Source: Escherichia phage inny. From it: a stretch of 64,000 bases of DNA. The stretch lies in the sequence record MN850601.1, one strand, 5' to 3'. The position numbers and the translations under genes are program-made. Shown here piece by piece: positions 1-63,781 of the stretch. The notes below the pieces were generated by a model. It had not been told where the DNA came from. It did not search any database and saw only the letters and a list, made by a program, of their open reading frames with translations. The first letter of the stretch is position 1, and every line of letters starts with the position of its first letter.

Positions 1-2
1 CG

Positions 3-530
3 AAAGGTACAAAAGTAAGTAAGGTTGTTAAAGATTTAGTTAAAGATTTAGGTACTACAGAAGGTAATATTCACGTAGACACAGAGAAAACTTTATCATC
101 TGCAACAGCTATGTGTGGGAACACATCACATTACTTAGAAAGTATCTGTAAAGGTATTGATCACAATGTGTCGATACAAGATGGATCTGTTTACGTAACA
201 CCAAGATCACAAATGTCTAGCGCAAGATGCGCATATATTAGTGCAGAAACAGGTTTAATTGGTAGTCCAGAACCTTTCCACAACGATATTAAACCGACAC
301 AAAAAGTAACTAAATCTTCTAAGAAAGCTAAAAAGCCTACAGATGGTGTTAAGTTCAGATGTGAGATGAACGGTGCTATCCTACCAGAAAAAACTGTTTG
401 GCTCAAGAGCCATAACTACGATGGTGGTTTTAAGGTAGTATCTGTTGTTCATACAGGAGATAGGGAAGGTAAAGACTGGACAACTGAAGTAGAGTCTGTA
501 TCTGTATCTGCAATTATTAAGAAGGGCTAG
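3..530 (+). CDS. structural-module protein, 5' partial (reading frame open to window start; ATG at 111 may be internal)
   Basis: Frame of ORF 111..530 has no stop back to position 3; lies immediately upstream of baseplate genes on same strand. Confidence 0.4.
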   Translation, partial: KGTKVSKVVKDLVKDLGTTEGNIHVDTEKTLSSATAMCGNTSHYLESICKGIDHNVSIQDGSVYVTPRSQMSSARCAYISAETGLIGSPEPFHNDIKPTQKVTKSSKKAKKPTDGVKFRCEMNGAILPEKTVWLKSHNYDGGFKVVSVVHTGDREGKDWTTEVESVSVSAIIKKG

Positions 531-532
531 AA

Positions 533-1270: not shown

Positions 1271-1273
1271 CAG

Positions 1274-1909
1274 ATGGGAATACCATTTGATTTAAAACTT
1301 GATGGTTCTAATGATTTAGTGATGGTGGATGGTGATTTAACACTAACCACAACTAAAAGTGAAATTGCATCACAGACGCTTGGAATAACACTTAGAACTT
1401 TCCGTGGAGAATGGTTCCTCAATTCTAATTTTGGGGTTCCATATCTGCAAGAGATTATTGGTGTTGCCAAGAAGAAAGAGATTGTTGATCGCATTTTCTT
1501 ATCAACTATAGCAAGTAATGTTTATATAGATAATATCAATTCCTACACATCCTCTTATGATAGAGATGATAGGTATTACTCAATGAACGTTACTGTTACA
1601 GTTGGTGAACAAGTTGTTAGTGCTCTATTCAGTACACAGCCGTCTGAAGAATATATCTATCCAGAAGCTGGTGATGATAATGCAGCAATCACTTGTGAAG
1701 CATTTGAAATTGTTGAATCTGCAAATAGACTCTATCGCTTTATTAACATTGTTGGTCTTCCTAAAGATACTTATTCTACTTGGTGGAATGAGTGGTCTAA
1801 CGAGGCATTGATTGAAAAATACCTTGTTAACGAAGCCAATAAAGGTCTTGCAACCAATTACAACTATGCTATAACAGCAACAATGGGAGCTACAAATAAT
1901 AATGGCTGA
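1274..1909 (+). CDS. baseplate wedge protein, gp25/GPW-like N-terminal domain
   Basis: TLRTFRGEWFLNSNFGVPYLQEIIG resembles gp25/W family core; 4-nt gap to spike gene. Confidence 0.45.
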   Translation: MGIPFDLKLDGSNDLVMVDGDLTLTTTKSEIASQTLGITLRTFRGEWFLNSNFGVPYLQEIIGVAKKKEIVDRIFLSTIASNVYIDNINSYTSSYDRDDRYYSMNVTVTVGEQVVSALFSTQPSEEYIYPEAGDDNAAITCEAFEIVESANRLYRFINIVGLPKDTYSTWWNEWSNEALIEKYLVNEANKGLATNYNYAITATMGATNNNG

Positions 1910-2375
1910 TTTAACTACAATCAAGGTGACTGATCTACCTGTAACAACATCTGTTTCAGACACAGATTATTTTGTAACAGATCAATCAGGCATCACTAAG
2001 AAAACATCATTACGTGTTCTTCTTGCGGGTGCTGGTGTTACACGAAATCGTCTTTCTGCAAGGGGTACTGTTACAAATACCCTAGCTTTAGATATTAGCA
2101 CGGCAGAGTATTTCTCTGCCACTTTATCTAGTCCAACTTGCAGTATTTCATTTAGTAATGTTCCAGTTACAACTAACATTGTTCAAAACTTTACGCTATC
2201 CCTACGTCAAGGCAGTGGAGCAAATAAAGTAACGTGGCCTCAATCTGTTAAATGGAGTTTTGGTCGCGCTCCTGTTTTGAGTTATAAACAGGGAGCTACA
2301 GATATTTTTGAATTTGTTAGTTATGATAATGGAGCTACCTGGATAGGTAGTTTAGTGATGGCAGGAGTGATTTAA
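1902..2375 (+). CDS. hypothetical structural protein
   Basis: 157 aa ORF, 8-nt overlap with upstream gene, ATGA overlap with downstream gene; inside baseplate block. Confidence 0.4.
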   Translation: MADLTTIKVTDLPVTTSVSDTDYFVTDQSGITKKTSLRVLLAGAGVTRNRLSARGTVTNTLALDISTAEYFSATLSSPTCSISFSNVPVTTNIVQNFTLSLRQGSGANKVTWPQSVKWSFGRAPVLSYKQGATDIFEFVSYDNGATWIGSLVMAGVI

Positions 2376-5251
2376 TGTCAAGAATTAAGCACAGAATTGA
2401 CAATGTTTTTCAACTGATCGATGGACATATTCAGTTCTTAGATCGTAATACAGGTTTAACTGTAGATCCTACAGTGCAACACTATGTATTAAACCCACAA
2501 AACGTTCTAGCTAATAACAGACACTTTATAAACTGGACTGCTCAAGAAGGGCAACCAAACGGGGATGCTACAACAGAAGGTCAATCCGTGCTTATTCTTG
2601 GTTGCGCTTATGCATACCTAGCTTCCGGCGATACAAAGTATTTAGACTCTGCTAAAAAATATTGGCAAGCCTATATAGATTACTTCTTTGGTGGTCAACC
2701 TATCCCAGATCCGCCAGCAAAGTATCGCCCTAACTGGATTATTAACGGTAAAGAACCACGTCTTGCACATTATCCTCTTACAGATGATGGCTACCCTACA
2801 CACGGAGGTTTTAAGGGTAGCTTAATGACGTGGACTAACGGTAGAACAGTTATTCCTCATGGTGCTCCACATTGGGGAGAATACCTTGACAAAGCATGGT
2901 TTGCTTTTAATGGTAATCTAGGATGGAACTCTGTAAACGCTACAGTATATGCTGTTAATGCAGATGGTACAACAGATTGGTCTAAGAAGGGAGATCAATG
3001 GGATGTTGATTGGATCATTGATCGCCTAGGACGTAAAGTTGATTGGGATGGAAATATCTTAGAAGAAGGTTTTCCAACATCTCAATACGGAACAGTTCAA
3101 CTAAAAAATACTTCTGTAAATGGTACATATAAATTTAACTACGCGACTTGTAACCCTGTTGAACACGGTGGTTATTTAATGGAGCGTAACACTATGTGGC
3201 ATAACAGACCAGTTAACGTTCCGGTAGAAATGGGTTTTCAGGATAATGCGTCAGATGCTGAAACTTGGTGGTGTGATGCTAATTACCTGATGTACCAAAT
3301 TACAGGAGAAAGAAAATATTGGCTATGCTGGCAGTCTTCACTGTTAGTGTGTCAAGATTATTCAAACATTGATATGTTTGATAAATTCTTCCGTAAGTCT
3401 ACATATGCAACTATTCCGTTTACAGATGGCATCTCTTACGATTATTCGTATCCATCTACAGCAATACCTAAATATTCAAGAGATACTTTAGGTTATATTG
3501 TTATTAGACAAGATGTTGCTGCTCAAACAACATTAGAACAGCAATCCATTTGGTTTAAAGTTGATCAGAACTCTAAGTTACGAGTTCAGTTCCAAGGTGT
3601 AGATGACGCAGGACATGGTATTCTTTTCCGTCCAGAATTGGAGCTAAGTAAGACCAAAGATGAAAATAACACAGTAACTTACCGTTGTGGCTTACCATTA
3701 GGTACAGCTAATATGACAAGCATGGATATTCCATTATCCAGCTTTATGAGAAGTACCCCTCCAAATGGTGGAACATATATTATCGCAGATCCGCGAATTA
3801 TTGTTGACTGGGGTGACAATACTGTGGTACAATTTAAGTATGTAACAGGTATTACTGGAACTAATGATGACCAGATTGTTACTGCATCAATGGATACGGA
3901 TGGTGGTGTCACTGTTGGTTTTTGGTTAACCCCTACATCAAAAGCTAATGTTAAGTCTATCACATATAGAACATATGAAGATGACTTTAACATGACTATC
4001 ACGGATGCTCAAGGTTGGAGATGGTGGGCTATGCTACCTAAAACGCAAGGAGCATGGAGTACGAAGACTTTATCAGCCTCTGATTTTAAGTTAAGTGCTT
4101 ACCAGCCTAATCATCCAGAAACAGATCCTAAACCTTCAGCAATAAATCTTACTGCTGTAGATCAGGTAAATTTAGTTCTCGATACGGCTCCTGTCAATGG
4201 TTTAACAGGAACAATAGATTTCTATTGTATTAACGATGTGCCTGAAAGATATTCGTCATCTTCTGGTGATGATTATACCATGTACTTCCGTATCACTGTA
4301 CAGGCTTCAAGTCCTCATACTGCTAAGTTAGGTGATTGTACTATTATTGACTATAAGTTAAATAGTCTTAATTACACACCAGGAATAATTCCATTCTCTA
4401 ATATTAGTGACCCAAACACTGCATTGTATGATGGCTGGCGTGGTATTCCATACCCAGGATACCAATACCCTTCCTTATACTGTTTTGCAGGTAGAGATAT
4501 TGATTGGACGCGTTTAAATAACAGTATCAATTTCTTGTATGATTCTCAAATGTGGTTTTATAACACATTCGATCCTGTGATGCCTGGGCCTATGGCACAA
4601 GCGTATGTGTGGGATCGTTGGGATGCAAGAAAATACGGTGAACCAAATACGTTCACAATGAAACACTGGAATGAAAAAGCGTGGGATGGTTATGAAGCTC
4701 GTGCATTCTACTGTGCTTGTCATGCTGTATACGAACTTGTACAAAGAGGAGAAACACCTCCTGAAAAACTAGTAACAGTTTGTAAAAATTGGATCAACTA
4801 TCTTAAATGGTTCCAAGACAATAATGATGGAAGAACACCAACTATCTTTAACCCAGATGGTACAGTTCTTGCGCCTATAGATGACTTTACTAGTCATATG
4901 TCTGCACTGTTTATGGCGGGTTGTTCAATCATGGGCTTGGCAGGTTATGATTCACAAATTCCAAACATTGGTATTGTAGCAGACAGATGTTTTGATCTGA
5001 TTCAGCAAAACTATATTGTGCTTTCCCCTAACCATCCGATGAATGGTTCCTGGAGTGTTGCACCACGCCCAGATTCAGATAACGGAATGTTCTTTGGTTT
5101 CCATGCTGGAGAACTATTACGTGGTTTTGGTTTATATGCCTTGTATCGTAAACTAAACCCTCAAAACGCTTTACCAATTTTGGATAATAGTAACATACCA
5201 ACACTAACTGTTCTAACTATGAATGATATTAGTGTTGATGTAACCAAATAA
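2375..5251 (+). CDS. large baseplate-associated protein, possible (alpha/alpha)6 glycosidase-like domain
   Basis: 958 aa; segment LGCAYAYLASGDTKYLDSAKKYWQ reminiscent of alpha/alpha-toroid glycoside hydrolases; embedded between wedge and J-like genes. Confidence 0.4.
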   Translation: MSRIKHRIDNVFQLIDGHIQFLDRNTGLTVDPTVQHYVLNPQNVLANNRHFINWTAQEGQPNGDATTEGQSVLILGCAYAYLASGDTKYLDSAKKYWQAYIDYFFGGQPIPDPPAKYRPNWIINGKEPRLAHYPLTDDGYPTHGGFKGSLMTWTNGRTVIPHGAPHWGEYLDKAWFAFNGNLGWNSVNATVYAVNADGTTDWSKKGDQWDVDWIIDRLGRKVDWDGNILEEGFPTSQYGTVQLKNTSVNGTYKFNYATCNPVEHGGYLMERNTMWHNRPVNVPVEMGFQDNASDAETWWCDANYLMYQITGERKYWLCWQSSLLVCQDYSNIDMFDKFFRKSTYATIPFTDGISYDYSYPSTAIPKYSRDTLGYIVIRQDVAAQTTLEQQSIWFKVDQNSKLRVQFQGVDDAGHGILFRPELELSKTKDENNTVTYRCGLPLGTANMTSMDIPLSSFMRSTPPNGGTYIIADPRIIVDWGDNTVVQFKYVTGITGTNDDQIVTASMDTDGGVTVGFWLTPTSKANVKSITYRTYEDDFNMTITDAQGWRWWAMLPKTQGAWSTKTLSASDFKLSAYQPNHPETDPKPSAINLTAVDQVNLVLDTAPVNGLTGTIDFYCINDVPERYSSSSGDDYTMYFRITVQASSPHTAKLGDCTIIDYKLNSLNYTPGIIPFSNISDPNTALYDGWRGIPYPGYQYPSLYCFAGRDIDWTRLNNSINFLYDSQMWFYNTFDPVMPGPMAQAYVWDRWDARKYGEPNTFTMKHWNEKAWDGYEARAFYCACHAVYELVQRGETPPEKLVTVCKNWINYLKWFQDNNDGRTPTIFNPDGTVLAPIDDFTSHMSALFMAGCSIMGLAGYDSQIPNIGIVADRCFDLIQQNYIVLSPNHPMNGSWSVAPRPDSDNGMFFGFHAGELLRGFGLYALYRKLNPQNALPILDNSNIPTLTVLTMNDISVDVTK

Positions 5252-5259
5252 GGAAAATA

Positions 5260-7335
5260 ATGAAACAGGCTATTTTTACTGTAACTCGAAATACGAGAGT
5301 AAATGCCAGTTCATTCAGCTATAAGACCGTCGATGGAACGGCGGTCGCTGGTAGAGATTATGTAGCTAAACAGGGAACAGTAACGTTCCCTTCTGATGCA
5401 GATTCTGTTACTGTAGTAGTTGATGTATATGAACGTCCGGCAAACTCTTTAGATCTTTATTTTACTCTTGAGATTACTAGCATAAGTCAAAATAACATGA
5501 TGATCAATGAAGAAATTCGTTGTGTTATTACGACTAATCAATCGAATACAACCCCGCTAACTTGGCCTGTTGTGAAGTCTAGAATGTTTGATCCTAAGTT
5601 TTGGACAATAGATTCTCAAGCAACAGAGAGTTGTTCTATTATCTCTAATGGTGATTCTTTCACAGCAAGAATGGTTAATAGGACAGTGGCTGGTCTTGCT
5701 GGGATTATTTGGTCAACTTACGATAAATATGATCACAAAGGATTAGGCTACCAAGAACATTCTGACTTAAGTAAAGAGAAACTTTGGTTTAAAATGGAAC
5801 TTAGTCAAGGTGTTCCTGGATTAAAAGAAGAAAAATTATTGCCATCCTTAACAGTGACACTGAAGGATGAAACAGTTCATTATGTATCTCTAAACTTTTA
5901 TGCAGAAGAAGTTTCAGAGGACGGTAAAACAGCAATAATCAAATTAGATTTCTCAAATTTAAAATCTGGGCCAGAAAATGATATTGTTGTTGACACTACA
6001 CAGATAGATAACATGTTCTTCTCCTTGATTTCCGCAAGGTATCAAGAAATTGAAGATGTTATACCAGTAGACAATATAGATCTTTCCTTTAAGTTTACCA
6101 TACTAGAGCCTGATACTGGTTACAGTATGATGAATATGGGTAATTTAAATGTTCCGGCGCACACCATAAGAATGTGTACATCTTATGATGATATGTATAA
6201 CCTAACCCCAGAGCGAGTTATTTCTAACACCTATAGATTAGGTTATAGAGATATGATTAACCATTATAATGGTATGTCACACTATTATCAATTTAGTTGG
6301 GATGCTGGATCTAATAAATGGGCTTTGAACAGAACAGAATATTTAAACCCAGCAACAGAAGCCTGGTTTGATAATTTCCACGCTAATGCAAAAGCTATGG
6401 GCTACACAGTAATGAACTCCTTAAGTTTTGAAATTATGAGTACAGTGTGTCCTGTAGAATGGGTACAACATACTTGGAATGATGATCTGGCTGCTACAGG
6501 TTATGAGCCACCAAGTTATGTTTTATCTCCTTCAATTGATGAAGGGATGAATTATTTACAAGGTGTAATAAATAAGATAGCTTCTATATCCGCTGCTAAT
6601 GATCTTCCGGTTATTATTCAGGTTGGTGAACCGTGGTGGTGGTATAACACAGCTACCAATCTACCGTGTATTTATGATTATGCAACCAAAGTTGCATTTA
6701 ATAATGAAACTGGGTTATATGCACAAGATGTTGGTACAGTTAAGAATTATAAAACTGGTACACCATATGATGAATATTATGCATTCCTATCTAAAACATT
6801 AGGACTGCGTGTTGCTAAATTTGCAACAGATACTAAATTAGCCTATCCTGGAGCTAAAGTTACATTATTACCATTTGTGCCATCCATTTTAGGTAATGGT
6901 ATGATGGAGTTTGTTAACTTCCCTAAAGATTATTATATCCCAGAAAACTTTGACTTTTATTGTTCAGAATGTTATGACTGGTTGTTGGAAGGTCAGATGG
7001 AAAGATCTTTCGACGCTATTAAAATACCTAATGAGCAACTAGGTTTTAGTTATGATAAGATACATTATCTTGCAGGGTTTGTTCCAGATGCAACTCTAGC
7101 ACCATTATATGGCTTTGATCCTGAATCAGACTACAGAACATATTTGTGGAAAATGATTATAGGTAATATCGTATTGAACGACCAGAAGTTTGTTGGTTTG
7201 TATCAATACATATGGGCTTATCCACAAATTATGGCAGATTCATTAACTGTTCTTAATTCAAAATCCCAAGTTTTTTATATGGGTAACGTACCTCTGAATG
7301 TCTTTTTACAAGATACAGTATATGTTTCTTCTTAA
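5260..7335 (+). CDS. baseplate-associated protein with N-terminal Calx-beta-like domain
   Basis: 691 aa; N-terminus VDGTAVAGRDYVAKQGTVTFPSDADSVTVVVDVYE matches Calx-beta pattern. Confidence 0.4.
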   Translation: MKQAIFTVTRNTRVNASSFSYKTVDGTAVAGRDYVAKQGTVTFPSDADSVTVVVDVYERPANSLDLYFTLEITSISQNNMMINEEIRCVITTNQSNTTPLTWPVVKSRMFDPKFWTIDSQATESCSIISNGDSFTARMVNRTVAGLAGIIWSTYDKYDHKGLGYQEHSDLSKEKLWFKMELSQGVPGLKEEKLLPSLTVTLKDETVHYVSLNFYAEEVSEDGKTAIIKLDFSNLKSGPENDIVVDTTQIDNMFFSLISARYQEIEDVIPVDNIDLSFKFTILEPDTGYSMMNMGNLNVPAHTIRMCTSYDDMYNLTPERVISNTYRLGYRDMINHYNGMSHYYQFSWDAGSNKWALNRTEYLNPATEAWFDNFHANAKAMGYTVMNSLSFEIMSTVCPVEWVQHTWNDDLAATGYEPPSYVLSPSIDEGMNYLQGVINKIASISAANDLPVIIQVGEPWWWYNTATNLPCIYDYATKVAFNNETGLYAQDVGTVKNYKTGTPYDEYYAFLSKTLGLRVAKFATDTKLAYPGAKVTLLPFVPSILGNGMMEFVNFPKDYYIPENFDFYCSECYDWLLEGQMERSFDAIKIPNEQLGFSYDKIHYLAGFVPDATLAPLYGFDPESDYRTYLWKMIIGNIVLNDQKFVGLYQYIWAYPQIMADSLTVLNSKSQVFYMGNVPLNVFLQDTVYVSS

Positions 7336-7346
7336 GGATCTCTAGT

Positions 7347-7592
7347 ATGAGAAAATTTTTAATAGGTATGTTTTGTACATATCCTGATAATAAAGTCAGT
7401 TCTACTAAAGTTTGGAATGCTATTGGTATGATTGTTATGTCCAGTATGTTTATTTATTTGGGAATTGATAAAGAAATTCCTGAGTGGATGGGCTGGGCTT
7501 TTGTTTTTATGATCACACCATCCAGACTAATGAAGAATTTAATAGATTTACGTTGGGGCAGATCACCTGCCCCTGATAAGGAGGATAACTAA
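7347..7592 (+). CDS. small membrane protein
   Basis: 81 aa, two hydrophobic segments; ATGG/TAATG coupling to downstream J-like gene. Confidence 0.35.
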   Translation: MRKFLIGMFCTYPDNKVSSTKVWNAIGMIVMSSMFIYLGIDKEIPEWMGWAFVFMITPSRLMKNLIDLRWGRSPAPDKEDN

Positions 7593-9079
7593 TGGCAGAT
7601 TATGGTTTAACAGATGCTGGTTTTGTCATTCCAACGTTTGATGATATTTTAAATAATTATATGACAGCATTGAAAAACACTTTTGGTGCAGATACAGCTA
7701 CATCTGAAGATACTGTCTTTGGTCAACTGTTTCGTATTATTGCATATACAGATTACACCCTTTGGGAAGGTATGCAAGGTGTTTACAATACCCAAACCTT
7801 AGATGGTGCAGAAGGTATTTACCTTGATGAAATTTTCTCTAAGAGAGGTTTTTATCGTAAGGCAGCTTCTGCTGGTAGTGGTTATGCTTATGTTAAATCT
7901 AACAATAAGGCAGCTTGGACTTATGAACTAAGCACCGATGTTTATTTTAATGCCGATAACGATTTGACATATTATGTCAGTGCACCAACAATGTTGAATG
8001 CTAAGATTGGAGCATATACCATTTCTAAAGCAAACGCAACAGCTTCTGGTGAAACTTCTATTACTTTCTACATTCAAAGTGCTATTGACGGTGGTCTTAA
8101 CAGTAAAACACTAAGTCCTAGCAATACAAACTTTATTTTAGATCTCACGAATTTCATTAAAGCTAACGTATCAACAACAGATCGTGCTTTAGTATGGAAT
8201 GATGCTAGTAATGTTTACATGGGTTATAATCCAGAAGATAATGTTAACCCAATAGGTCTAGTAACACCAGTGAAATTTTACGCATCTATTGCAATTGGTA
8301 CAAAATGGAGTGAAATTCCAGTTACGTGTTCAGACGTTGGTTATAATCCAGTAGGTACAGAAAGTATTACAGGTATTTCTTCAACGTTTACAGGCTTTTT
8401 AGATACAGGTAACTTCTACCCATTCTCTCCAGGTACGGATGTTGAAACAGATGCAGAATTCCGTTCTCGTTTCAATGATAATATGGATGAAGCTAATGCT
8501 GCTACTCGTGCTGCTATTGTTAAAGCTCTGCTACTGACAGATGGTGTGACAAAGGTTAAGATTTATGATAACCCTACATTACATGATCAGGAACATGCTC
8601 CAGCTATGACATTCCAGACTATTGTGTATGGCGGTACAGCAGAAGAAGTTGCACAGGTTATTTATAATACTAAGCCTATTAACACCTTAACCTATGGTAC
8701 AACAGCAATTACTATTATAACAGAAGACGGCGGTCAAGAAGTAATTCGTTTTTCTCCTGGTGACAATGCTGAATATTCACTTAGACTAGTATATCAAACT
8801 GGCAATGGTAGTGTGTTAAGTACAACAGAAAGAGAAAATATTGTTTCTGCTCTTTCAAATCTACAGGCTTATTTTGAGCTAGGGTCAACAGTAACTAACG
8901 ATCAGATAAAAGGTGTAATTTATTCTGCACTTGCGTTCGGACGCTTGACTTCTCTCCGTGTTTATGTTAAACTTAATACTGAGGATGACAGTAAATATAA
9001 TGAGGGAGATATCACTCCAGCGTACAATGTTGTACCATCCTTTGACCTTGATAATATTTCCTACGAGTACGGAGTCTAA
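7592..9079 (+). CDS. baseplate J-like protein
   Basis: 495 aa; N-terminal GLTDAGFVIPTFDDIL...FGAD...LWEGMQGVY pattern typical of Baseplate_J/gp47 family; followed by I-like gene. Confidence 0.6.
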   Translation: MADYGLTDAGFVIPTFDDILNNYMTALKNTFGADTATSEDTVFGQLFRIIAYTDYTLWEGMQGVYNTQTLDGAEGIYLDEIFSKRGFYRKAASAGSGYAYVKSNNKAAWTYELSTDVYFNADNDLTYYVSAPTMLNAKIGAYTISKANATASGETSITFYIQSAIDGGLNSKTLSPSNTNFILDLTNFIKANVSTTDRALVWNDASNVYMGYNPEDNVNPIGLVTPVKFYASIAIGTKWSEIPVTCSDVGYNPVGTESITGISSTFTGFLDTGNFYPFSPGTDVETDAEFRSRFNDNMDEANAATRAAIVKALLLTDGVTKVKIYDNPTLHDQEHAPAMTFQTIVYGGTAEEVAQVIYNTKPINTLTYGTTAITIITEDGGQEVIRFSPGDNAEYSLRLVYQTGNGSVLSTTERENIVSALSNLQAYFELGSTVTNDQIKGVIYSALAFGRLTSLRVYVKLNTEDDSKYNEGDITPAYNVVPSFDLDNISYEYGV

Positions 9080-9081
9080 AA

Positions 9082-9711
9082 ATGGCAGTGAGTGTTGACC
9101 ATGTGACAACGTGGGATAGTATCAATGAAGATGTTAAAGACCTACTGATTGAAGATTTTAAATCTTCTCCGAACATTGTCAAACTACTCTATATCATTTC
9201 TAGCGAAAAACAAAAGATAGATCAGGCAATGATCTATCTTGCCAAACACCGCTTGATCTCTACTGCAACTGGTAAGTATTTAGATCTTATTGGTGAAGAG
9301 ATGGGGATGGAAAGAAATGGTGCTACAGATGAAGAGTATCGTACAATATTAAAAATCAGGGCTTATCGTGTTGCGTCTTCTGGTACGCGAGATGATATCA
9401 TTGATATGTTCGCTCGTTTTACAGGAACAGAAAAAGAAACGATCAATACATACGTTGGATTAAATAAAACATTCGACGTATTCTTTTATAATTTGTGTCT
9501 ACAATCCGATCAGGCAGTAGCACAGTTACTTAACGTTTTCCCGATCCTAAGTAGTTATCGCTTAGGTGCGAAAGCGGGTTCAGCCTTTGGTTTCACTTCC
9601 TATTATGCCACAACTCCACCTCATGGCATAGGTGGTTTAGGTTCTCTTTACACAGAGGCTGAAGGAGATGATACAGGGCGAATGACTATGCTGATAGCTC
9701 AAATAGAATAA
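9082..9711 (+). CDS. baseplate/tail protein I-like
   Basis: 209 aa; follows J-like gene in canonical order; segment YLDLIGEEMGMERNGATDEEYR resembles gpI-like tail proteins. Confidence 0.5.
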   Translation: MAVSVDHVTTWDSINEDVKDLLIEDFKSSPNIVKLLYIISSEKQKIDQAMIYLAKHRLISTATGKYLDLIGEEMGMERNGATDEEYRTILKIRAYRVASSGTRDDIIDMFARFTGTEKETINTYVGLNKTFDVFFYNLCLQSDQAVAQLLNVFPILSSYRLGAKAGSAFGFTSYYATTPPHGIGGLGSLYTEAEGDDTGRMTMLIAQIE

Positions 9712-9724
9712 GGAGTTACCCTTA

Positions 9725-10705
9725 ATGGCAAAGCCACAATACTACCCTGACTGGGCGACACAAACAGTAACCCTCCCAGGAACGGGAAACACAAACAAGA
9801 TTAGACCAAAAGAAACCATCCGTAATGTTGGTATGGACTTTGGTCAGATTATGACTTGTGAAGAAATGAACTGGATCTTAAACAATATTGGGTCTTGGAT
9901 TCGCTATATGCAAGATGAATTCTTCCCAACATTGCCTACTACATATCTTCCTATAGTCGGTACTAAAATTACAATGGCAGGTGATGCTACAGGTGAAGTT
10001 ACATGGAATGGTAATGCTGCTGTAACATTATCTATTCAAGTAGTAGATAACAGTCATAATCACTTATCAGCTAACATTACAGACGCAACATCGAACCAAG
10101 TTGTAGGAAATGTCCTTGTTAAGCGTGATAATGGTGGTGCTATCTATGCAGGTGATATTTACACTTGTGGTACAGGTGCTACAGATCCTGCAACATTATT
10201 TTTTAGAAACTATAATGGACAAACAGTAGGCAATATGTCTTCTGAACCAGGTGCAGGTGGTCAACTCTATATTTATAGAATAAATCCATCTACTGGAGGA
10301 ACATCTTGTGGAGTCCGTTTGTATGATGCAGGTTATGTTTTAATAGACAATCCTCGTTCTAATTCTGGTCAAGATACTGGCAATGGTAATGCTCTTGTAA
10401 GATTAGATTATCTTAACTCAAGACTAAACTCATTGCAAAGTACACTGCAAAATAATATTAACAACGTTAATAGCAACTTGCAAGGCCAAATTAATAACAT
10501 TAACAACAGAGTTTCTTCTGTTGTGTCTTCTATCCGTCTAGGTACACGTATTAAAGCTGGTGTATCTGAATCTCCTTTCTATGCTGGTCACGTGATCACA
10601 GGTTGGGGTTTTGGTGATAAGAAAGAACTTCGTGGTGCTTGGTATTGGTCTGCTCCGCTACAATATTACATTAATGGTAGCTGGATAACAGTAACCAACG
10701 TTTAG
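9725..10705 (+). CDS. tail fiber protein (short)
   Basis: 326 aa after J/I genes; Asn/Gln-rich coiled segment NNINNVNSNLQGQINNINNR; followed by Tfa-like chaperone gene. Confidence 0.5.
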   Translation: MAKPQYYPDWATQTVTLPGTGNTNKIRPKETIRNVGMDFGQIMTCEEMNWILNNIGSWIRYMQDEFFPTLPTTYLPIVGTKITMAGDATGEVTWNGNAAVTLSIQVVDNSHNHLSANITDATSNQVVGNVLVKRDNGGAIYAGDIYTCGTGATDPATLFFRNYNGQTVGNMSSEPGAGGQLYIYRINPSTGGTSCGVRLYDAGYVLIDNPRSNSGQDTGNGNALVRLDYLNSRLNSLQSTLQNNINNVNSNLQGQINNINNRVSSVVSSIRLGTRIKAGVSESPFYAGHVITGWGFGDKKELRGAWYWSAPLQYYINGSWITVTNV

Positions 10706-10717
10706 TAAGGAGAACAC

Positions 10718-11269
10718 ATGAAAAAAGATGTTATTTACACTGGCTTTGAACTATATCAACCAGAATTGACAGAAGAAAATGTCATCTATCTTTCAATAGG
10801 TGCTGGTTTTCTTAAAGATAAAGATGGTAATGATTGGTACGAAATTCAGAAATATTTATCCAAAAATTACCCTGATGCCTATTTCTTAACTCTAGATCAC
10901 AACAATGTAGTTGTTGCAGCTACGAAAGATGTTTCTACATATTTTCCCGCTGGTCTTACTGTTCTTGTAACATACAATGTTCCAGATAAAATAGAAGAAG
11001 AAAGCAACCTAGGGTCGTGGAGATATGACAATGGTAAGTTTATTTCTCATAATGGGTTTGCAATAGAAGATGCCAACCTTAAAATGGAAAAAGAATTAAC
11101 TTGGGCCACAAATCAAATATCTGCAATTCAAGATTTAGAGGAATTACAAGGTTTATCTGAAGAACAAAAAGATTGGTTAGGAAAAGTTAAACTCTATCGT
11201 GCAACATTAATTCAAATTAACGTTGAAGATGCACCTAATATAACTTGGCCTACAAGACCTAAGAAATAG
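10718..11269 (+). CDS. tail fiber assembly protein (Tfa-like)
   Basis: 183 aa; C-terminal KLYRATLIQINVEDAPNITWPTRP resembles Tfa family C-terminus. Confidence 0.5.
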   Translation: MKKDVIYTGFELYQPELTEENVIYLSIGAGFLKDKDGNDWYEIQKYLSKNYPDAYFLTLDHNNVVVAATKDVSTYFPAGLTVLVTYNVPDKIEEESNLGSWRYDNGKFISHNGFAIEDANLKMEKELTWATNQISAIQDLEELQGLSEEQKDWLGKVKLYRATLIQINVEDAPNITWPTRPKK

Positions 11270-11278
11270 GGGCAATGT

Positions 11279-11620
11279 ATGGAGCTAACAGAAGTATGGG
11301 ATATCGCTAAAGAGGCGATTATCCCTCTTATTGGCGTAATCTGGGTGGTCTTCAAACAGAAGATAGATGATATGGCAAGTGATTTGGATAAAATGGAAGA
11401 CAAATACCGCGAACTAGAAAAGAAGTTGGTGTTTGTTGAATCCACTTATGCTACCAAAGCAGAACTTGCTCAAATGCTTAACCAGATCAACTCTACATTA
11501 ATGGCAAATAATACTGCCTTAGAACAGAAGATTGAAAAAATAATGGATTTAAAAAATGCTCCTGTTCAATTAATGCTAGAGGAGATTACAAAGCGCACAC
11601 AAAGTAAGGACAAAAATTAA
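11279..11620 (+). CDS. hypothetical protein, N-terminal hydrophobic helix plus coiled coil
   Basis: 113 aa; IIPLIGVIWVVF helix then heptad-like charged region; ATGG overlap with next gene. Confidence 0.4.
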   Translation: MELTEVWDIAKEAIIPLIGVIWVVFKQKIDDMASDLDKMEDKYRELEKKLVFVESTYATKAELAQMLNQINSTLMANNTALEQKIEKIMDLKNAPVQLMLEEITKRTQSKDKN

Positions 11621-14034
11621 TGGCGAATTTTCCAACATATCCTGCTACGACACTAGAACAAGGTGTTGATCTGGTTATATTCTCGTCTAACCAGATGCAT
11701 GATGTTATTAATGGGGATGCTACAGCAACTGTAGAAACCGAAACAGGTTTAATACCTACACTGCGTAAAGCACTTGTTGATAACTTCTTCTTTAAGAGTC
11801 CTGTTGCTTGGTCAGCAGGATCAACTGAAACTGTATTTAACCAGTTACGTTATTTTGAAAACGGTATCTTGAGTGGGTACTATTATGCCCCATCTGCCAC
11901 TACTGCGAACCCTGTACCTATGCAGGGCACACCTGTAGGGGACAGTAACTGGACTCTGTACGCTCTTAAAACTGAACAGTTAGCTTCAGATGTGTATCCT
12001 TGGTATTTTAAAGGTGCTACAGGATATGAAACAGAAATCAGTCCTCCTTATATCTTTGATAATGCTATTGTCACCATTAACGGTGTAATTCAGATTCAAG
12101 GTGAAGCATTTACTATCAAAGATAGTAAAATTATTCTGGCAGAACCATTAGGTTTAGATCCGTCTACTGGTCTACCTAACAAATTGTTTGCTTTTATTGG
12201 TAAAACAACAGCCTCTACTTCTTACGTAGAGAAAAACCTTTTGTCATCTACCACTGGTGCAGCAATGGTTGGTCTTCCATCTGGAGGCAACCTGTTACAA
12301 GCTCAATACTTTGTAACGCCTGAGCAGTTTGGTGCAATTGGTGATGGAGTTACCGATGATACTCAAGCAATTTTAAAAACTATTACTTTCGCTAACACGA
12401 ATAACATTCAAGTACGTGCAGATAAGAATTATAGATTCACAAGCTCAATTGCTATGTCTGGTATTCGTTGGTATGGTGGTACATTCACTGGTAACGGTGG
12501 AACAATGATTTCTACTGTGTCCTGTTGGATGGAAAACGTTCGCTTTGAAAAATGTTATGTTAAGATGTTAGGTGGTGATTGCCGATTCTATCGTAATATC
12601 TTCTCCAACGCAACATCTACAGCAGCATTCTTAATGCAAGCAATGACAAGTGAAGGTACGTTGGACTTCAGTTACAACGAAATGTATGGTTGTAAATATG
12701 CGATCCTGCAACAAGGTACTGGAGAAGTAATGACCTACGGGCGTTACTCTAACAACTATATTCACGATATTAAAGGTGATGCTATTGAACTTAACGTAGT
12801 TCAAAAACACTACACTGAAGGTTTGATTATCGAGAATAACCACATTGCTAACGTAGATGCTTCTGGACAAGGGGCAAACTGGGGTATTGGTATTGGTGTA
12901 GCAGGTAGTGGCCCATATGGTGTTGATGTTCCTGATTCACAATATGTACGTAACTTCAGTATCGTTGGGAATAGGGTTTACAATTGCCGTCAATGTTTAC
13001 ACGTTGAAATGGGTAAAAACTTCACAATACGTGATAATGAAGTTTATCCTAACACAGCAGTTTCAACAGGTACAGGTTTAACTACTTGTGGTGTTGCATT
13101 ATACGGATGCCAAGATTTTGAAGTTGATGGTTTAACTGGTTATCTGCTTAATGATCCGTCTGTTTCAACACGCATGGTCTTTATTGATTGGGGTGTTAAC
13201 AGTGGAAGATATGCGGGGCCACCAATTAACTTTACAATTAAGAATTTGGATATTCCAGAATCCTCAATTGAGATTGCAACCTCTGGATCAGATGCTTGGG
13301 AAAACTCTACAATTGTTAGTAATATCAATTGTAATGTTTTTAAATGGCGTGGGCTACCATCTAGCTCTACTTTTAATAATATTCGTTGCCGTAGTATTGA
13401 CTTTATTGGTCAACACGGAAGCGGAGAAGGAAGTGGTGGCGGTTTCTATACTCGCAGCCAATTCACGTATATGAAGTGGGTAGGATGTACAGCACTTAGC
13501 GGAGATGAAACAACAGTTTCTTTTGCTAAAATCTACACTGATCGTTGCGATCAGGTTGGAAATAACTTTGGTGTTCCAACTGCTGTTGATGGTACAGGTC
13601 ATCGTGGGCCAGTTTTAACTACTATTTCTGAACAATATTTTACAGCTTATGATGAATTCCCAGGTGGGCGTGAATTCCCTACTGGAACAGTTATTCATTG
13701 TGCAAGCGGTAAAAAACATGTTGTTACAGTAGGTGGTGCTTTCTTTAGTGCCAACGAGAAAATAAAAGCAACTGTTACAGGTCAAACCTATCTACAGTCT
13801 AATGCTTTAAACTGGGCTAGTAATGGCTACGCTAAAGCAGCAGGTACTAAAATTGTTATTCCAGGTGCAGGTGCAAATGGCGGCGATCTTGTGACAACTA
13901 TAGCACGTGCTACATACGTGACAAATAGTTTGTACACAATAGATATTGCAGATCCAATTGTAACACCTACAGCAGAGAATACACAAATTAAAGCTCTGAA
14001 TCCTGTTACTTTTGTTACTGTCAACAATGCTTAA
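11620..14034 (+). CDS. tailspike with right-handed beta-helix (pectate-lyase-like) domain, putative depolymerase
   Basis: 804 aa; FGAIGDGVTDDTQAI motif typical of pectate lyase superfamily beta-helix proteins; repetitive beta-rich body. Confidence 0.65.
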   Translation: MANFPTYPATTLEQGVDLVIFSSNQMHDVINGDATATVETETGLIPTLRKALVDNFFFKSPVAWSAGSTETVFNQLRYFENGILSGYYYAPSATTANPVPMQGTPVGDSNWTLYALKTEQLASDVYPWYFKGATGYETEISPPYIFDNAIVTINGVIQIQGEAFTIKDSKIILAEPLGLDPSTGLPNKLFAFIGKTTASTSYVEKNLLSSTTGAAMVGLPSGGNLLQAQYFVTPEQFGAIGDGVTDDTQAILKTITFANTNNIQVRADKNYRFTSSIAMSGIRWYGGTFTGNGGTMISTVSCWMENVRFEKCYVKMLGGDCRFYRNIFSNATSTAAFLMQAMTSEGTLDFSYNEMYGCKYAILQQGTGEVMTYGRYSNNYIHDIKGDAIELNVVQKHYTEGLIIENNHIANVDASGQGANWGIGIGVAGSGPYGVDVPDSQYVRNFSIVGNRVYNCRQCLHVEMGKNFTIRDNEVYPNTAVSTGTGLTTCGVALYGCQDFEVDGLTGYLLNDPSVSTRMVFIDWGVNSGRYAGPPINFTIKNLDIPESSIEIATSGSDAWENSTIVSNINCNVFKWRGLPSSSTFNNIRCRSIDFIGQHGSGEGSGGGFYTRSQFTYMKWVGCTALSGDETTVSFAKIYTDRCDQVGNNFGVPTAVDGTGHRGPVLTTISEQYFTAYDEFPGGREFPTGTVIHCASGKKHVVTVGGAFFSANEKIKATVTGQTYLQSNALNWASNGYAKAAGTKIVIPGAGANGGDLVTTIARATYVTNSLYTIDIADPIVTPTAENTQIKALNPVTFVTVNNA

Positions 14035-60220: not shown

Positions 60221-61393
60221 ATGACAGCACCAAAATCATGGGAACAATATAAAGAAGAATTAACACCCCTTGCTAAAAATCGCAATATTCAAATCCGGGG
60301 TTATGTTGGTGAATGGAAAGGGAACAAGACTAAACTTAAGCTATCTTGCCCTAAACATGGAGAGTGGAACACCACGAACATTAATGATTTTAAGAAGGGA
60401 CGTGGTTGTCCTATCTGTTCTGGTAAGAAGCCGTTAACATGGGAAACAGAATTGCCGATCTTGGAAGAGATAGCACAGAAGAGGGGGTATCAGGTGTTAG
60501 GGTACGTGGGAGAATGGAAAGGGAATAAAACAAAACTTGATTTGTTGTGTCATTGTGGTAATAAATGGGATACTACAAGTATTAACAATTTTAAACGTGG
60601 TAGCGGTTGTCCACAATGTAAGAGGGAGAGACAAACAATGTCCGACGATCAACATATTGCAGATTTCTTTTCTACAGGGGAATTTAAGGAAGGCACTATC
60701 TTCACCAATACAGGGAAACGTAACAAGCGTGATGCAGTATGGATGGTTGAGTGTCCTGTTTGCTCCCATGATGAATATGTTCAAGCAGGTGTTTGTGATG
60801 GTAAATTTTACTCTGCAGGACATAACCTTAAACAAGGGTATATTCCGTGTCGTTGTGGGAACTATCAGTATACAGAAGACCAGATCACCTATAGGGTAAA
60901 AAAGGAAGTAGAAGGGAAAGGGTATGTCTGGGTAGATTGGATTACCAAACCCTCTTCTATAGGTAAGTTTAAATATCTTTGTCTTGTGCATGGTGAGCAG
61001 ATAGGGAGTGCTCGTAATTTATTAAGCCTCGGTCAAGGTTGTCCACAGTGTGCTGGTCATAATCAACAGCAATTATATATTAATATTGTTAAAGATAATG
61101 ATATTATAGTTGCTCTTAAGTTTGGTATATCTAAAGATAGCGATAGACGATTAAACGGTCAAAATAGCCGTAATCTGTTTTTTATGGAGCGTATTTGTTT
61201 ATATGATTTTAGCACAGTGAAACAATGTAGGGCTGCTGAAAGAGCTATAAAGAAAAAATTAAAAACTGGTATTTTAACGGCAAGAGAGTTGAAAGATGGT
61301 TATACAGAAACAGTAAGTGTTTCTGATTTGGAAAATCTTCAAAAAATTATTACACAATATGGTGGCAAATTAGTATACAGTAAGGAGATGTAA
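60221..61393 (+). CDS. zinc-ribbon repeat protein with C-terminal T5orf172/GIY-YIG-like region (tentative)
   Basis: Repeated module Y(V/L)GEWKGNKTKL..C..HG.W.TT.IN.FK.G.GCP.C three times (CPIC, CPQC, CPQC); C-terminus IVALKFGISKDSDRRL. Confidence 0.5.
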   Translation: MTAPKSWEQYKEELTPLAKNRNIQIRGYVGEWKGNKTKLKLSCPKHGEWNTTNINDFKKGRGCPICSGKKPLTWETELPILEEIAQKRGYQVLGYVGEWKGNKTKLDLLCHCGNKWDTTSINNFKRGSGCPQCKRERQTMSDDQHIADFFSTGEFKEGTIFTNTGKRNKRDAVWMVECPVCSHDEYVQAGVCDGKFYSAGHNLKQGYIPCRCGNYQYTEDQITYRVKKEVEGKGYVWVDWITKPSSIGKFKYLCLVHGEQIGSARNLLSLGQGCPQCAGHNQQQLYINIVKDNDIIVALKFGISKDSDRRLNGQNSRNLFFMERICLYDFSTVKQCRAAERAIKKKLKTGILTARELKDGYTETVSVSDLENLQKIITQYGGKLVYSKEM

Positions 61394-61945
61394 ATGCGGA
61401 TTACTGATAAGTATGTGTTCTTCTTCTCGGCAAAAGATGAATTTAGCAACTGGTATCTATCATCTTTTATTGAACCTTTAGCTCCCAAGTATAATAATTC
61501 TATTACAAGTTCTGTTGAATTTACTTGTGTGGAACAATATATGATGTGGAGAAAAGCATGTTTGTTTTATGATTACAACATTGCATCTTCTATTTTAACC
61601 GGAGATCTAAGATATACAGGAGAAAAAGAACAGGCATATTATAAGCGACTAGGTAGATTAGTTAAAGATTACGATGAAGCTACTTGGACTTCTTTACGGG
61701 AGAAGATTGTCAAGCGTGGTTTGTATCTTAAATACACACAAAATGAAGATCTCAAAAATAAACTTATCGCTTACGCAGATAAGGAGTTCGTAGAGGCAAG
61801 CCCTTATGATTCTATTTATGGTATCAAAATGGGAATGTGGGATCGTGATGTGGAAAATAAGGACTGTTGGAAAGGACAAAATCTTTTAGGAAAATGGCAT
61901 ACAGACCTTGCTGTTTATCTAAAAGCACAATCTGATATTTCCTGA
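61394..61945 (+). CDS. NADAR-domain protein (YbiA/DUF1768-like)
   Basis: 183 aa; FFFSAKDEFSNWY, EQYMMWRKA, LVKDYDEATW, EFVEASPYDSIYGIKMG and GQNLLGK are colinear with E. coli YbiA; TAAATG coupling. Confidence 0.8.
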   Translation: MRITDKYVFFFSAKDEFSNWYLSSFIEPLAPKYNNSITSSVEFTCVEQYMMWRKACLFYDYNIASSILTGDLRYTGEKEQAYYKRLGRLVKDYDEATWTSLREKIVKRGLYLKYTQNEDLKNKLIAYADKEFVEASPYDSIYGIKMGMWDRDVENKDCWKGQNLLGKWHTDLAVYLKAQSDIS

Positions 61946-62160
61946 TATTTTGAAAATTTTTATTTTTATAAAAAGGGGTGTGGGTTTCATGTACGGAAAT
62001 CCACCCTCTGAATAATATATCCAGAGTAAATATTATTCTGTACTCTGTTAATAAAGTATTTAATTTGTTTGTTTGACTATGGTATCTGATCTTTAAAAGA
62101 CATACTATCTCTTAACTACTACTTATAACAGAACAGTAAAATCATTTTTATAAAAAGTAC

Positions 62161-62365
62161 AAAATTATTTAAAGTTTTTACAGATTTTTGGGTACAAATT
62201 TTGAAAATGAAAAGTTCAAGTTTGGTCAAAATTATTTAAAGTTTTTGTACGTATTTCTGTCCAGATTTTGAAAATGAAAACTTCAATTTTTTAAAAATTC
62301 CCCAGTTTATTTAAAGTTTTTTTGCCTTTTTCCGTAGAAAAATCAAAAATGAAAAGTTCAATTTC
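62161..62365. repeat. three imperfect tandem direct repeats (~67-78 bp period)
   Basis: Each unit holds ATTATTTAAAGTTTTT and GAAAATGAAAAGTTCAA cores (units at about 62161, 62228, 62306); AT-rich, no ORF. Confidence 0.6.
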
Positions 62366-62385
62366 GTGTTTTTATAGGTGTGTTA

Positions 62386-62497
62386 ATGAGAATCATTTTC
62401 GTTTGTAAATGAGAATCATTATCATTTAACTATGTAAGTGATAATCATTCTCAGTAAGAGAATGAGAATCATTAGCAAATGAGAATTTTCTCATTTA
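62386..62497. promoter_or_regulatory. array of Fur-box-like palindromes (candidate iron-responsive operator cluster)
   Basis: AATGAGAATCATT at 62386, 62409 and 62462, GATAATCATTCTC at 62441 and AATGAGAA-TT-TTCTCATT at 62480; 62409..62425 matches the Fur box core at 15 of 16 positions. Confidence 0.5.
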
Positions 62498-62731
62498 GAG
62501 AATAACGCGCAGGGGCGGTGTTTGTCTCGCGCTCCCGTGTCCCCTCGCCATACAATAAGAATAGCATAACCAACAACAAAAGCAAGCGATTATTTTTATC
62601 TTTACATTTCTTTACAAATTTATTTTAGACGAGCTACCGGCGATCAACCTTCCAACCAGTGCCCCCTGGTATGTTAGCCCCGCCTTTACGCCGTGGGGGT
62701 GGCGTTTCCTCTTCTGTATGTAAAACAGTAT

Positions 62732-62750
62732 AAGCCCGATCCCTGGGCTT
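62732..62750. terminator. bidirectional hairpin terminator
   Basis: AAGCCC-GATCCCT-GGGCTT; T-rich on plus side (ATTATTTTTTGTTTT) and directly downstream of minus-strand ORF 62758..63024. Confidence 0.45.
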
Positions 62751-62757
62751 GTCAAGA

Positions 62758-63024
62758 TTATTTTTTGTTTTCTTGCCAGGATAGGACACCTAACCAAAAA
62801 TACATGTCGCCCCGCGCCCCTGGCGGGATCTTGCTTTCCCCGCCGCCACTACAAGCCCATAGATAACCATTAGCGAACGGATCAAAATGATCTATTTCTT
62901 CCACCTTATGATCGCCCAGGTTGAGAACGGTTTCAACCTTTAAGCCCGTTGCGCTTGCTACCTGGTGCACCGTGCCGCCTTGCCAGCCTAATGAGTGCAT
63001 GAGGTGTAGAGTAGTATTTGTCAT
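62758..63024 (-). CDS. hypothetical protein in GC-richer segment
   Basis: 88 aa; AAGG-type RBS; codon usage visibly GC-richer than the phage core. Confidence 0.4.
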   Translation of the reverse strand: MTNTTLHLMHSLGWQGGTVHQVASATGLKVETVLNLGDHKVEEIDHFDPFANGYLWACSGGGESKIPPGARGDMYFWLGVLSWQENKK

Positions 63025-63137: not shown

Positions 63138-63166
63138 TTGACGTTCCTCACCTGGTAGCGTATTAT
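63138..63166 (+). promoter_or_regulatory. candidate sigma70 promoter
   Basis: TTGACG, 17-nt spacer, TATTAT, preceded by A-rich tract. Confidence 0.4.
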
Positions 63167-63293
63167 TCATCTTGTCGAGGGGGGCGAGGCACAACGACAA
63201 TAAACAAAAGGAGGGCGCAATGTAGGACGGGCAAAGGTGAGGATCTCCATAATCCACCGTCACAATAACATTACTTATAAAAGGTTGATAACG

Positions 63294-63389
63294 ATGATCA
63301 AGAAAGAAAACAGCTTGACGGTTGGAACGATTAACGCTATCATTCTTGCCGTTCCATTTTGGATTGTAGTTGCGGTTATTATTTTTTAA
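63294..63389 (+). CDS. small hydrophobic peptide (not in ORF track)
   Basis: 31-aa ORF MIKKENSLTVGTINAIILAVPFWIVVAVIIF with AAGG upstream. Confidence 0.3.
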   Translation: MIKKENSLTVGTINAIILAVPFWIVVAVIIF

Positions 63390-63397
63390 AAATATTC

Positions 63398-63425
63398 TTG
63401 ACAACGTTTTTTAATCTGATAAGAT
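63398..63425 (+). promoter_or_regulatory. candidate strong sigma70 promoter
   Basis: TTGACA, 16-nt spacer, TAAGAT, about 50 nt upstream of ATG at 63478. Confidence 0.45.
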
Positions 63426-63477
63426 GTATCACATAGGGCGGCAATAGTGCCGCTCATAACAGAAGAGAGAAATAATC

Positions 63478-63750
63478 ATGGCATCATATAGCGCATCAAT
63501 GATCGTAATGGGCATCACTGGTAAACCTATGCGCGGTGGCGGATCTTTCGCTAACATCAATATTGATGGGCGTTTATCCCTGGATGCAGCGATCACCGTG
63601 GCACGGGAAACATTTAAAAAAGAATGTAATTTCAATAAACAAGATTATCTCGGTTTCGCTATTGAAAAAACCGCGCGATTTGTGGATTATAAAAGCCCGA
63701 AAATGATCGACACTACACTAAAAGCGCAAGATGTAGCGTTTTTGCTTTAA
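63478..63750 (+). CDS. hypothetical protein
   Basis: 90 aa; GAGAGAAATAATC RBS; downstream of TTGACA promoter. Confidence 0.45.
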   Translation: MASYSASMIVMGITGKPMRGGGSFANINIDGRLSLDAAITVARETFKKECNFNKQDYLGFAIEKTARFVDYKSPKMIDTTLKAQDVAFLL

Positions 63751-63753
63751 GTC

Positions 63754-63781
63754 TTGACACTGAAAAATAATTTGGTAATAT
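63754..63781 (+). promoter_or_regulatory. candidate strong sigma70 promoter
   Basis: TTGACA, 16-nt spacer, TAATAT, about 55 nt upstream of ATG at 63839. Confidence 0.4.

Follow-up and report, generated by a model that had tools for sequence, protein, structure and literature searches.

Three tandem AT-rich direct repeats lie upstream of an array of Fur-box-like palindromes in Escherichia phage inny (sequence record MN850601.1; the 64,000-nucleotide stretch analysed here is called the window), and the locus raises the question of what such repeats do for the phage. A first-pass annotation of this DNA had named replication origins, packaging sites and stacked early promoters as the settings typical of iteron-like arrays. 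The repeats are a real, conserved non-coding element that acts at the DNA level. They probably form a phased, sequence-specific protein-binding array under purifying selection. As to the function of this array, the leading reading is that of iteron-like sites for origin-type initiation of replication, which we put forward tentatively.

The region between 61900 and 62560 shares 95-100% identity with that of roughly 50 Justusliebigvirus phages of Escherichia, which are phi92-like myophages of the subfamily Stephanstirmvirinae with a genome of about 146 kb. In public records the repeat tract is unannotated, covered by short spurious ORFs, or, in phages alia and muut, entered only as 'repeat_region'; the bare features of this last kind in the records of alia, muut, tuntematon and anhysbys give no function for the non-coding cassette around the repeats. 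Our literature search found the region described nowhere, the rV5 paper showing merely a 'non-coding' box. The phi92-, phAPEC8- and rV5-like phages are common in therapeutic coliphage collections, and the cassette is the largest conserved non-coding element that we found near their early region. Knowledge of its function would offer an engineering handle, as an ori fragment or as a region to be left undisturbed, and might reveal how these phages couple infection to the iron status of the host via Fur. As a side observation, the host labels of several records may be unreliable: at this locus, sequences entered as Campylobacter phage (A150, A145, C3, A110a and B15), Acinetobacter phage ABPW7, Serratia phage KKP_3264 and Klebsiella phage ZCKP1 share 95-99% identity with E. 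coli Stephanstirmvirinae.

The triple repeat and the cassette that holds it

A repeat search of the window identified one family of three 79-nt copies (62144-62222, 62211-62289 and 62286-62364), which show 72% identity to the reference copy and start-to-start spacings of 67 and 75 bp; TRF detected the first two copies only (period 67). The 15-mer TTATTTAAAGTTTTT is exact in all three copies, and the core AAAATGAAAAGTTCAA is found, with 0-1 mismatch, at the start of each of the three B boxes listed in Table 1. Neither sequence is in excess over chance elsewhere in the 64 kb, where TTATTTAAAGTTTTT finds one further match at up to 2 mismatches (28339, minus strand) against a chance expectation of 1.2. 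Of the 16- and 17-mer cores given in the first-pass annotation, one or two copies are exact and the remaining ones differ at a single position. Within 62101-62400 a word of 15 nt was the longest to recur in three or more places separated by 30 bp or more, while the longest triple word in dinucleotide-preserving shuffles of the same segment (n=2000) had a mean of 6.8 and a maximum of 10, and 15 nt was reached in 0 of 2000. The three tandem AT-rich repeats noted earlier are thus real, and their origin by chance is excluded.

Each unit consists of a box A (core ATTTAAAGTTT, starting at 62167, 62234 and 62309) and a box B situated 46 bp downstream, and the geometry of the window can be written A1-46-B1-21-A2-46-B2-29-A3-46-B3, with the first Fur-type palindrome starting about 30 bp further on. 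The repeat tract has the highest A+T content (78%, 99.97th percentile) of all 222-bp stretches in the 64 kb, and by the wedge model also the strongest curvature, the latter ranking being approximate.

Table 1. Features of the non-coding cassette and its borders in the window.
Feature	Coordinates	Strand	Basis
Left border, two copies of (C)TGATATTT	61932-61953	+	TRF: CTGATATTTC x1.9
Imperfect hairpin, candidate bidirectional terminator between NADAR operon and cassette	61974-62009		Folding
Three bipartite direct-repeat units	62144-62364	+	Repeat search, TRF, shuffle test
Box A1, TTATTTAAAGTTTTT	62165-62179	+	Word search and cross-genome alignment
Box B1, AAAATGAAAAGTTCAAGTTT, core 46 bp past A1 core	62204-62223	+	Word search and cross-genome comparison
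Box A2	62232-62246	+	Word search and cross-genome comparison
Box B2	62271-62290	+	Word search and cross-genome comparison
Box A3	62307-62321	+	Word search and cross-genome comparison
Box B3	62346-62365	+	Word search and cross-genome comparison
Array of 4-5 Fur-box-like palindromes (AATGAGAATCATTCTCATT type)	62381-62500		Repeat search, cross-genome comparison
GC-rich segment, near base-for-base conserved across two subfamilies	62500-62726		Alignments
Sigma-70 promoter TTGACA-17-TATACT	62755-62727	-	Promoter scan, 11/12 matches
88-aa ORF, conserved, function unknown, syntenic anchor of the cassette	62758-63024	-	ORF list and homologue searches
Start of rightward early-gene block, sigma-70 promoters at 63138, 63315, 63398 and 63754	63138-63781	+	Promoter scan

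The repeats had been placed right after the gene for a NADAR/YbiA-like protein (ORF 61394-61945; Pfam PF08719, E=2e-36), which in fact ends about 200 bp upstream of them. The control region likewise proved larger than the approximately 350 bp proposed, since the non-coding stretch measures about 810 bp (61946-62757) and is more modular than had been described. Its description as ORF-free stands, save for short ORFs lacking conservation; a hidden small gene was rejected, since comparison of the genera revealed no ORF with a conserved position, strand or sequence. From left to right the modules are the TGATATTT doublet, the hairpin, the three repeat units, the Fur-like palindromes, the GC-rich segment and the minus-strand sigma-70 promoter.

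The (C)TGATATTT doublet overlaps the stop codon of the upstream gene and supplies it, whatever gene stands there in a given lineage. It also ends the upstream gene in Tr1, KP13-26, tuntematon, Av-05 and the IMG/VR loci L018 and L024, and it is found at the starts of the non-coding regions in loci L003, L004, L010, L013, L018 and L024. The hairpin lies within an 85-nt segment (61946-62030) that folds with -22.6 kcal/mol on the plus strand (z=-3.0) and -17.6 kcal/mol on the minus strand (z=-2.05); a T-run follows the stem on the minus strand, and from these sequence features the hairpin is probably a bidirectional terminator.

At the other end of the cassette, the promoter is near-consensus, stands directly after the stop of the 88-aa ORF and has hexamers conserved in relatives. 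A GC hairpin is enclosed in its 17-nt spacer, and the pairing is kept by compensatory changes in relatives; in the covariation analysis of the conserved segment such changes were confined to this hairpin. The promoter fires leftward into the cassette, with non-coding DNA only and no ORF downstream.

The GC-rich segment includes CTTTACATTTCTTTACAAA and CTACCGGCGATCAACCTTCC...GTTAGCCCCGCCTTTACGCCGTGGGGGTGGCG, and a direct doublet, CTTTACA-TTT-CTTTACA, is also present in it. Justusliebigvirus and Phapecoctavirus have nearly the same sequence in this segment, which is still well conserved in Vequintavirinae, in contrast to the neighbouring repeats, whose identity is only about 66% or which show no relation. 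With indels that are not multiples of 3, the segment lacks a coding frame. A structured non-coding RNA in the segment was considered and rejected for want of thermodynamic or covariation support (covariation term -0.7 kcal/mol, z -0.5 and +0.9).

Among the flanking genes, the 88-aa protein was modelled by AF2 as a five-helix bundle (pLDDT 94), and a structural neighbour search with this model found none. The gene upstream of the cassette varies by lineage, encoding NADAR, DUF6939 or an unknown protein, and was rejected as the source of a cognate factor of the repeats because it differs between lineages. Further upstream, at 60221-61393 of the window, a 390-aa protein carries three CapR-homology zinc-finger repeats and a T5orf172 domain (PHROG 'endonuclease'); the length of its gene differs among close relatives (1398 bp in alia, 978 bp in EmilieFrey), which suggests that this gene just upstream of the NADAR gene may be mobile or rapidly changing.

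Four of the palindromes that follow the repeats match the E. coli Fur consensus GATAATGATAATCATTATC at 15-16 of 19 positions (counted by eye), and this match suggests control by iron. Elsewhere in the window a single palindrome of this type was found, at 2398 with 3 mismatches. The cassettes of relatives contain one to five such palindromes, often 29 bp apart, and in Vequintavirinae the last one stands between TTGAAT and TAGAAT (18-nt spacer), resembling a Fur-repressed promoter as seen in the alignment. The phage palindrome consensus TGAGAATCATTCTCA is a perfect palindrome, with two symmetric positions that differ from the Fur 7-1-7 motif. No paper found in our literature search links Fur to T5, rV5 or phi92.

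Conservation of the array in related phages

The cassette was located in relatives with the conserved minus-strand 88-aa ORF as anchor, and a non-coding gap of 780-880 bp was found to recur in Stephanstirmvirinae and in Vequintavirinae (Av-05, Kashira, phiTE and IMG/VR contigs). The repeats are present in the related phages, with the same geometry in the window and four other Stephanstirmvirinae lineages: the spacing A1-46-B1-20/21-A2-46-B2-29/30-A3-46-B3 is common to the window, PHB05, Citrobacter phage Tr1 and the Klebsiella phages KP13-26 and KP2025, while the sequences between the boxes diverge freely. Several direct repeats in conserved phase, here three bipartite units in five lineages, are what is expected of iterons. 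An 8-bp length difference reported by blast for records of the PHB05 type was dismissed as an off-register artefact that leaves the geometry unchanged.

The sequence ATTATTTAAA of box A1 is invariant in all 13 aligned Stephanstirmvirinae sequences. Box B of the other genera is again (A)TnTAAAGTTT, that of Justusliebigvirus having drifted to AGTTCAAGTTT, and this resemblance to box A indicates that the array really consists of six related boxes. Within Justusliebigvirus, the 8 genomes compared vary at 7 sites, none of them in a box; with the boxes making up 42% of the tract, the binomial P is about 0.02 (calculated from these 7 sites after four alignment-end columns had been discarded). The arrangement is not invariable, as Phapecoctavirus retains A1, B1, A3 and B3 with a decayed middle unit, and a 1-bp insertion after A1 in phi92 indicates some freedom in the spacing.

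In the sister subfamily Vequintavirinae (Av-05, Kashira and phiTE), unrelated three-unit arrays occupy the same position before the Fur palindromes, with unit spacings of 75/67, 67/65 and 78/63 bp, respectively, and the unit sequence GTTCTCGATCG...AATCGTATT...GCGAAAAATTTTT. Such retention of position, copy number and period with replacement of the sequence is the pattern expected of sites that co-evolve with a lineage-specific protein. The label 'iteron-like' of the first-pass annotation is supported by the comparison: boxes and spacing are conserved across genera, spacers drift, and the sister subfamily has a different three-unit array. These Vequintavirinae arrays contain 3-6 GATC (Dam) sites against 1.4-1.9 expected, and they are of 52-64% A+T against 78% for the Stephanstirmvirinae repeats, so that a role in melting would not be general. 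As to their composition, the units of Av-05, Kashira, phiTE and L024 are built on TCTCGATCG and GATCGTATT boxes, and those of Av-05 and Kashira terminate in A5-6T4-5 tracts.

Candidate functions of the array

We infer that protein binds to the repeats, and the mechanism considered here starts from this binding. The six boxes of the three A/B units, carried on curved AT-rich DNA, would be docking sites for a lineage-specific DNA-binding protein, probably encoded by the phage. Together with the adjoining Fur-box array, the repeats might be assembled into a single nucleoprotein complex at the upstream boundary of the early genes that occupy the right terminus, and origin-type initiation of replication could follow from this complex, with the boxes as iterons and the AT-rich repeats as the DNA that melts easily. 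The leftward promoter, having no gene to express, could provide activating or priming transcription through the cassette. Both the origin role and its activation by transcription are speculative.

Several observations point to an origin: the fixed box geometry in five lineages with drifting spacers, the confinement of variable sites to the spacers in Justusliebigvirus, the unrelated Vequintavirinae arrays of like period at the same position, and the extreme A+T content and curvature of the tract within the 64 kb. It is also favoured by the lack of RNA structure, conserved ORF and Rfam family in the repeats, and by the conserved promoter that fires into a cassette without an ORF, with a hairpin and T-run just past the repeats. 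The GATC excess in the Vequintavirinae arrays adds to this list, GATC clusters being typical of oriC and P1 oriR. Against an origin stand the size and bipartite build of the units (67-75 bp), as classical iterons are 17-22 bp long with a spacing of about 22 bp; the decayed middle unit of Phapecoctavirus and the insertion in phi92; and the modest A+T content of the Vequintavirinae arrays. Fur boxes, moreover, are found where DnaA or IHF sites normally stand, and we know of no role of Fur at any origin. The DnaA box TTWTNCACA is absent from 61946-62757, and among the Vequintavirinae arrays it occurs once each in Kashira and phiTE only. No initiator gene was found adjacent to the cassette, its neighbours being the genes for NADAR, the CapR/T5orf172-domain protein, an AAA ATPase and the 88-aa protein. 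A similarity to plasmid origins was also sought and discarded, the one match being spurious.

The same curvature and A+T content, the highest in the window, would suit an architectural role in transcription, in which a phage regulator or nucleoid proteins of the H-NS, Fis or IHF-like kind would occupy the curved repeats and make them an insulator, roadblock or upstream element; jointly with Fur, this element would govern transcription across the cassette and separate the upstream operon from the early block. This reading, which we consider rather unlikely, agrees with the location of the cassette between a terminator hairpin and divergent or leftward promoters, with the good match of the four palindromes to the Fur consensus, and with the enclosure of the last Vequintavirinae palindrome within TTGAAT-18-TAGAAT, as in a Fur-repressed promoter. 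The distances speak against it: the repeats begin 360-580 bp downstream of the leftward promoter, and the first early promoter is about 780 bp away, whereas classical control of initiation acts over shorter distances. Conserved specific boxes at exact spacing favour a sequence-specific binder over generic nucleoid proteins, the consensus sequences of IHF, Fis and CRP are unmatched as judged by eye, and the promoter scan detected no sigma-70 promoter in the Fur array of the window.

Promoters within the repeats themselves, one per unit, had been suggested in the form of stacked early promoters. In favour of this, they are arranged in tandem, rich in A+T and located upstream of the early region, but the scan found no sigma-70 hexamer pair in them, at a spacing of 16-18 bp, in any unit, and where a -10 element would be expected neither the units nor the genera share a conserved sequence. 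Nor do the boxes represent a dispersed promoter motif, since they are not enriched elsewhere in the window (7 near-matches against 6.75 expected), and the strong early promoters begin about 780 bp downstream, from 63138 onward. The suggestion of stacked promoters is therefore highly improbable. A sigma-28 promoter was also considered, TAAAGTTT being identical to the -35 element of promoters of this class; it was rejected, as the expected -10 element GCCGATAA is absent and no -10 is conserved in the alignment.

An action of the repeats as RNA would be conceivable if the leftward promoter transcribed the units, which might then serve as an antitoxin mimic of the phiTE pseudo-ToxI type, a CRISPR-repeat mimic or an sRNA sponge. 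For such a use there is the precedent of phiTE, a relative that employs tandem RNA repeats against ToxIN (PMC3475682), and the two systems are alike in being tandem repeats in a non-coding locus, phiTE being an rV5-like phage. The pseudo-ToxI of phiTE, however, maps at 106.7 kb, elsewhere than its cassette (about 39 kb), and it consists of 36-nt units that give a folded pseudoknot RNA, while the units here are 67-75 nt long and single units fold no better than shuffles on either strand (z -0.1 to +0.8). A structured RNA or a known RNA family was accordingly rejected for the repeats (z >= -0.1, no Rfam match). To our knowledge the repeats have no likeness to E. coli CRISPR repeats, and we regard an RNA-level function as very unlikely.

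Position in the genome and comparison with known systems

In phi92 the repeats map to 136,755-136,972 of 148,612 bp, that is 11,640 bp (7.8%) from the right end, and the cassette forms the upstream edge of a terminal early-gene block. The genes of this block, gp225-gp248, are all small and on the plus strand, and lie behind strong sigma-70 promoters up to the right end; the same orientation carries on across the terminus into gp001 and beyond. The phi92 record has 343-bp direct terminal repeats (DTR) annotated at both ends, and in BME3 a 342-bp DTR, determined by PhageTerm, is annotated about 12 kb from the locus.

These positions bear on the packaging site that had been proposed for the repeats. 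In lambda cosB (R3-I1-R2-R1), three phased repeats are likewise placed on bent DNA, where they are bound by protein, and this parallel is the argument for a terminase recognition site of the pac or cos type. Whereas cosB adjoins the cut site, the repeats lie 11.6 kb from the phi92 ends and about 12 kb from the DTR of BME3, so that a role in packaging was rejected as hardly credible.

Four more Fur boxes are present in phi92, two in the 343-bp DTR and two in a 1.1-kb non-coding stretch before the right DTR (11407-11435, 11465-11493, 12346-12374 and 12541-12569 in locus L015; 75-95 and 258-292 in locus L016). One of them (AATGATAATCATTATC) is an exact match to the Fur consensus core and sits just downstream of a promoter-like site, TTGATT-17-TATAGA, recognized by eye. 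Together with the array of the cassette, these boxes indicate that Fur-box clusters flank the terminal early block on both sides.

This arrangement recalls the injection-stop signal (iss) of phage T5. In a sensitive blastn search, the cassette matched a feature that T5 and relatives carry in the left terminal repeat under the annotation 'injection stop signal', the matched part being the palindromes DRC/palE-J within the signal (T5 locus L005, 1490-1665), and across 102 nt the two palindrome arrays are 72% identical (local E=7e-8). In T5 the iss (9140-10149 of 121,750 bp) displays the same order of pre-early genes, Fur-like palindromes and direct repeats, the last being the nine DRD repeats. 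By analogy, the cassette could be the inner edge of a first-entering early block and could pause or gate DNA entry or partition the terminal block; we think this improbable, although both the position of the phi92 repeats behind small plus-strand genes with strong promoters and the Fur boxes on the other side of the block agree with it. An untranslated repeat-rich region bounding early genes lies at about 8% from an end in both phages (7.5-8.3% from the left end in T5, with iss at 7.9%), and on this reading the right end of phi92 would be the one to enter first.

The T5 likeness is restricted to the Fur-type palindromes, for which convergence on the host Fur consensus is possible. A tblastx comparison of T5 1-11300 with the right and left ends of phi92 returned palindromes only, and homologues of A1 and A2 were absent; neither these nor dmp, the pre-early proteins of T5, have a homologue in the right block of phi92. 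The DTR is of 343 bp here against 10 kb in T5, the early genes continue past the terminus into gp001 and beyond so that the block is not a closed unit, and the early promoters face the genome end, not inward. Even in T5 the cis determinant of the stop is undefined, and two-step entry has never been reported for phi92- or rV5-like phages. The T5 iss contains paired DnaA boxes in the IRD'/IRC' inverted repeats (Davison, 10.1101/866236), and such pairs are absent from the cassette (61946-62757).

In summary of this comparison, the injection-stop region of T5 (Repeat Region 3 of the left terminal repeat) and the cassette are both long untranslated regions that lie some 8% of the genome away from one end and border sigma-70 early genes on their inner side, with Fur-like palindromes and with direct repeats on the end-distal side; T5 alone has nine 15-bp DRD repeats, paired DnaA boxes, a 10-kb terminal repeat and the A1/A2 proteins. 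The wider proposal drawn from this analogy, that phi92-/rV5-like myophages and the unrelated siphophage T5 share a module of host Fur bound to palindromes beside lineage-specific direct repeats, and that this module gates or pauses entry or partitions a terminal host-takeover block of about 8%, would be a long shot. If it were true, two-step or gated DNA delivery, with a role for Fur, would be more widespread than T5, and the module would give a lead to the cis determinant of the injection stop, which has long been sought in T5; a functional parallel would make this 40-year-old question of T5 entry testable in a second system.

Returning to the leading reading, that of an origin, the known iteron-type origins offer the closest terms of comparison. 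Phased direct repeats are shared with lambda ori, P1 oriR, SPP1 oriL/oriR (box A/B) and the non-coding transcribed ori of lactococcal c2, and so are bent DNA, an AT-rich tract in the Stephanstirmvirinae arrays, a non-coding nature, a promoter firing in, and a repeat sequence that changes between related lineages. The cassette differs from these origins in its long bipartite units, where theirs are of about 20 bp, and in that the window has Fur boxes in place of an adjacent initiator gene, DnaA site or IHF site. The bipartite 67-75-bp geometry, the pairing with a Fur array and the conservation over two subfamilies appear to be undescribed, while the kind of element to which the cassette belongs, tandem protein-binding repeats in a phage control region, is a familiar one.
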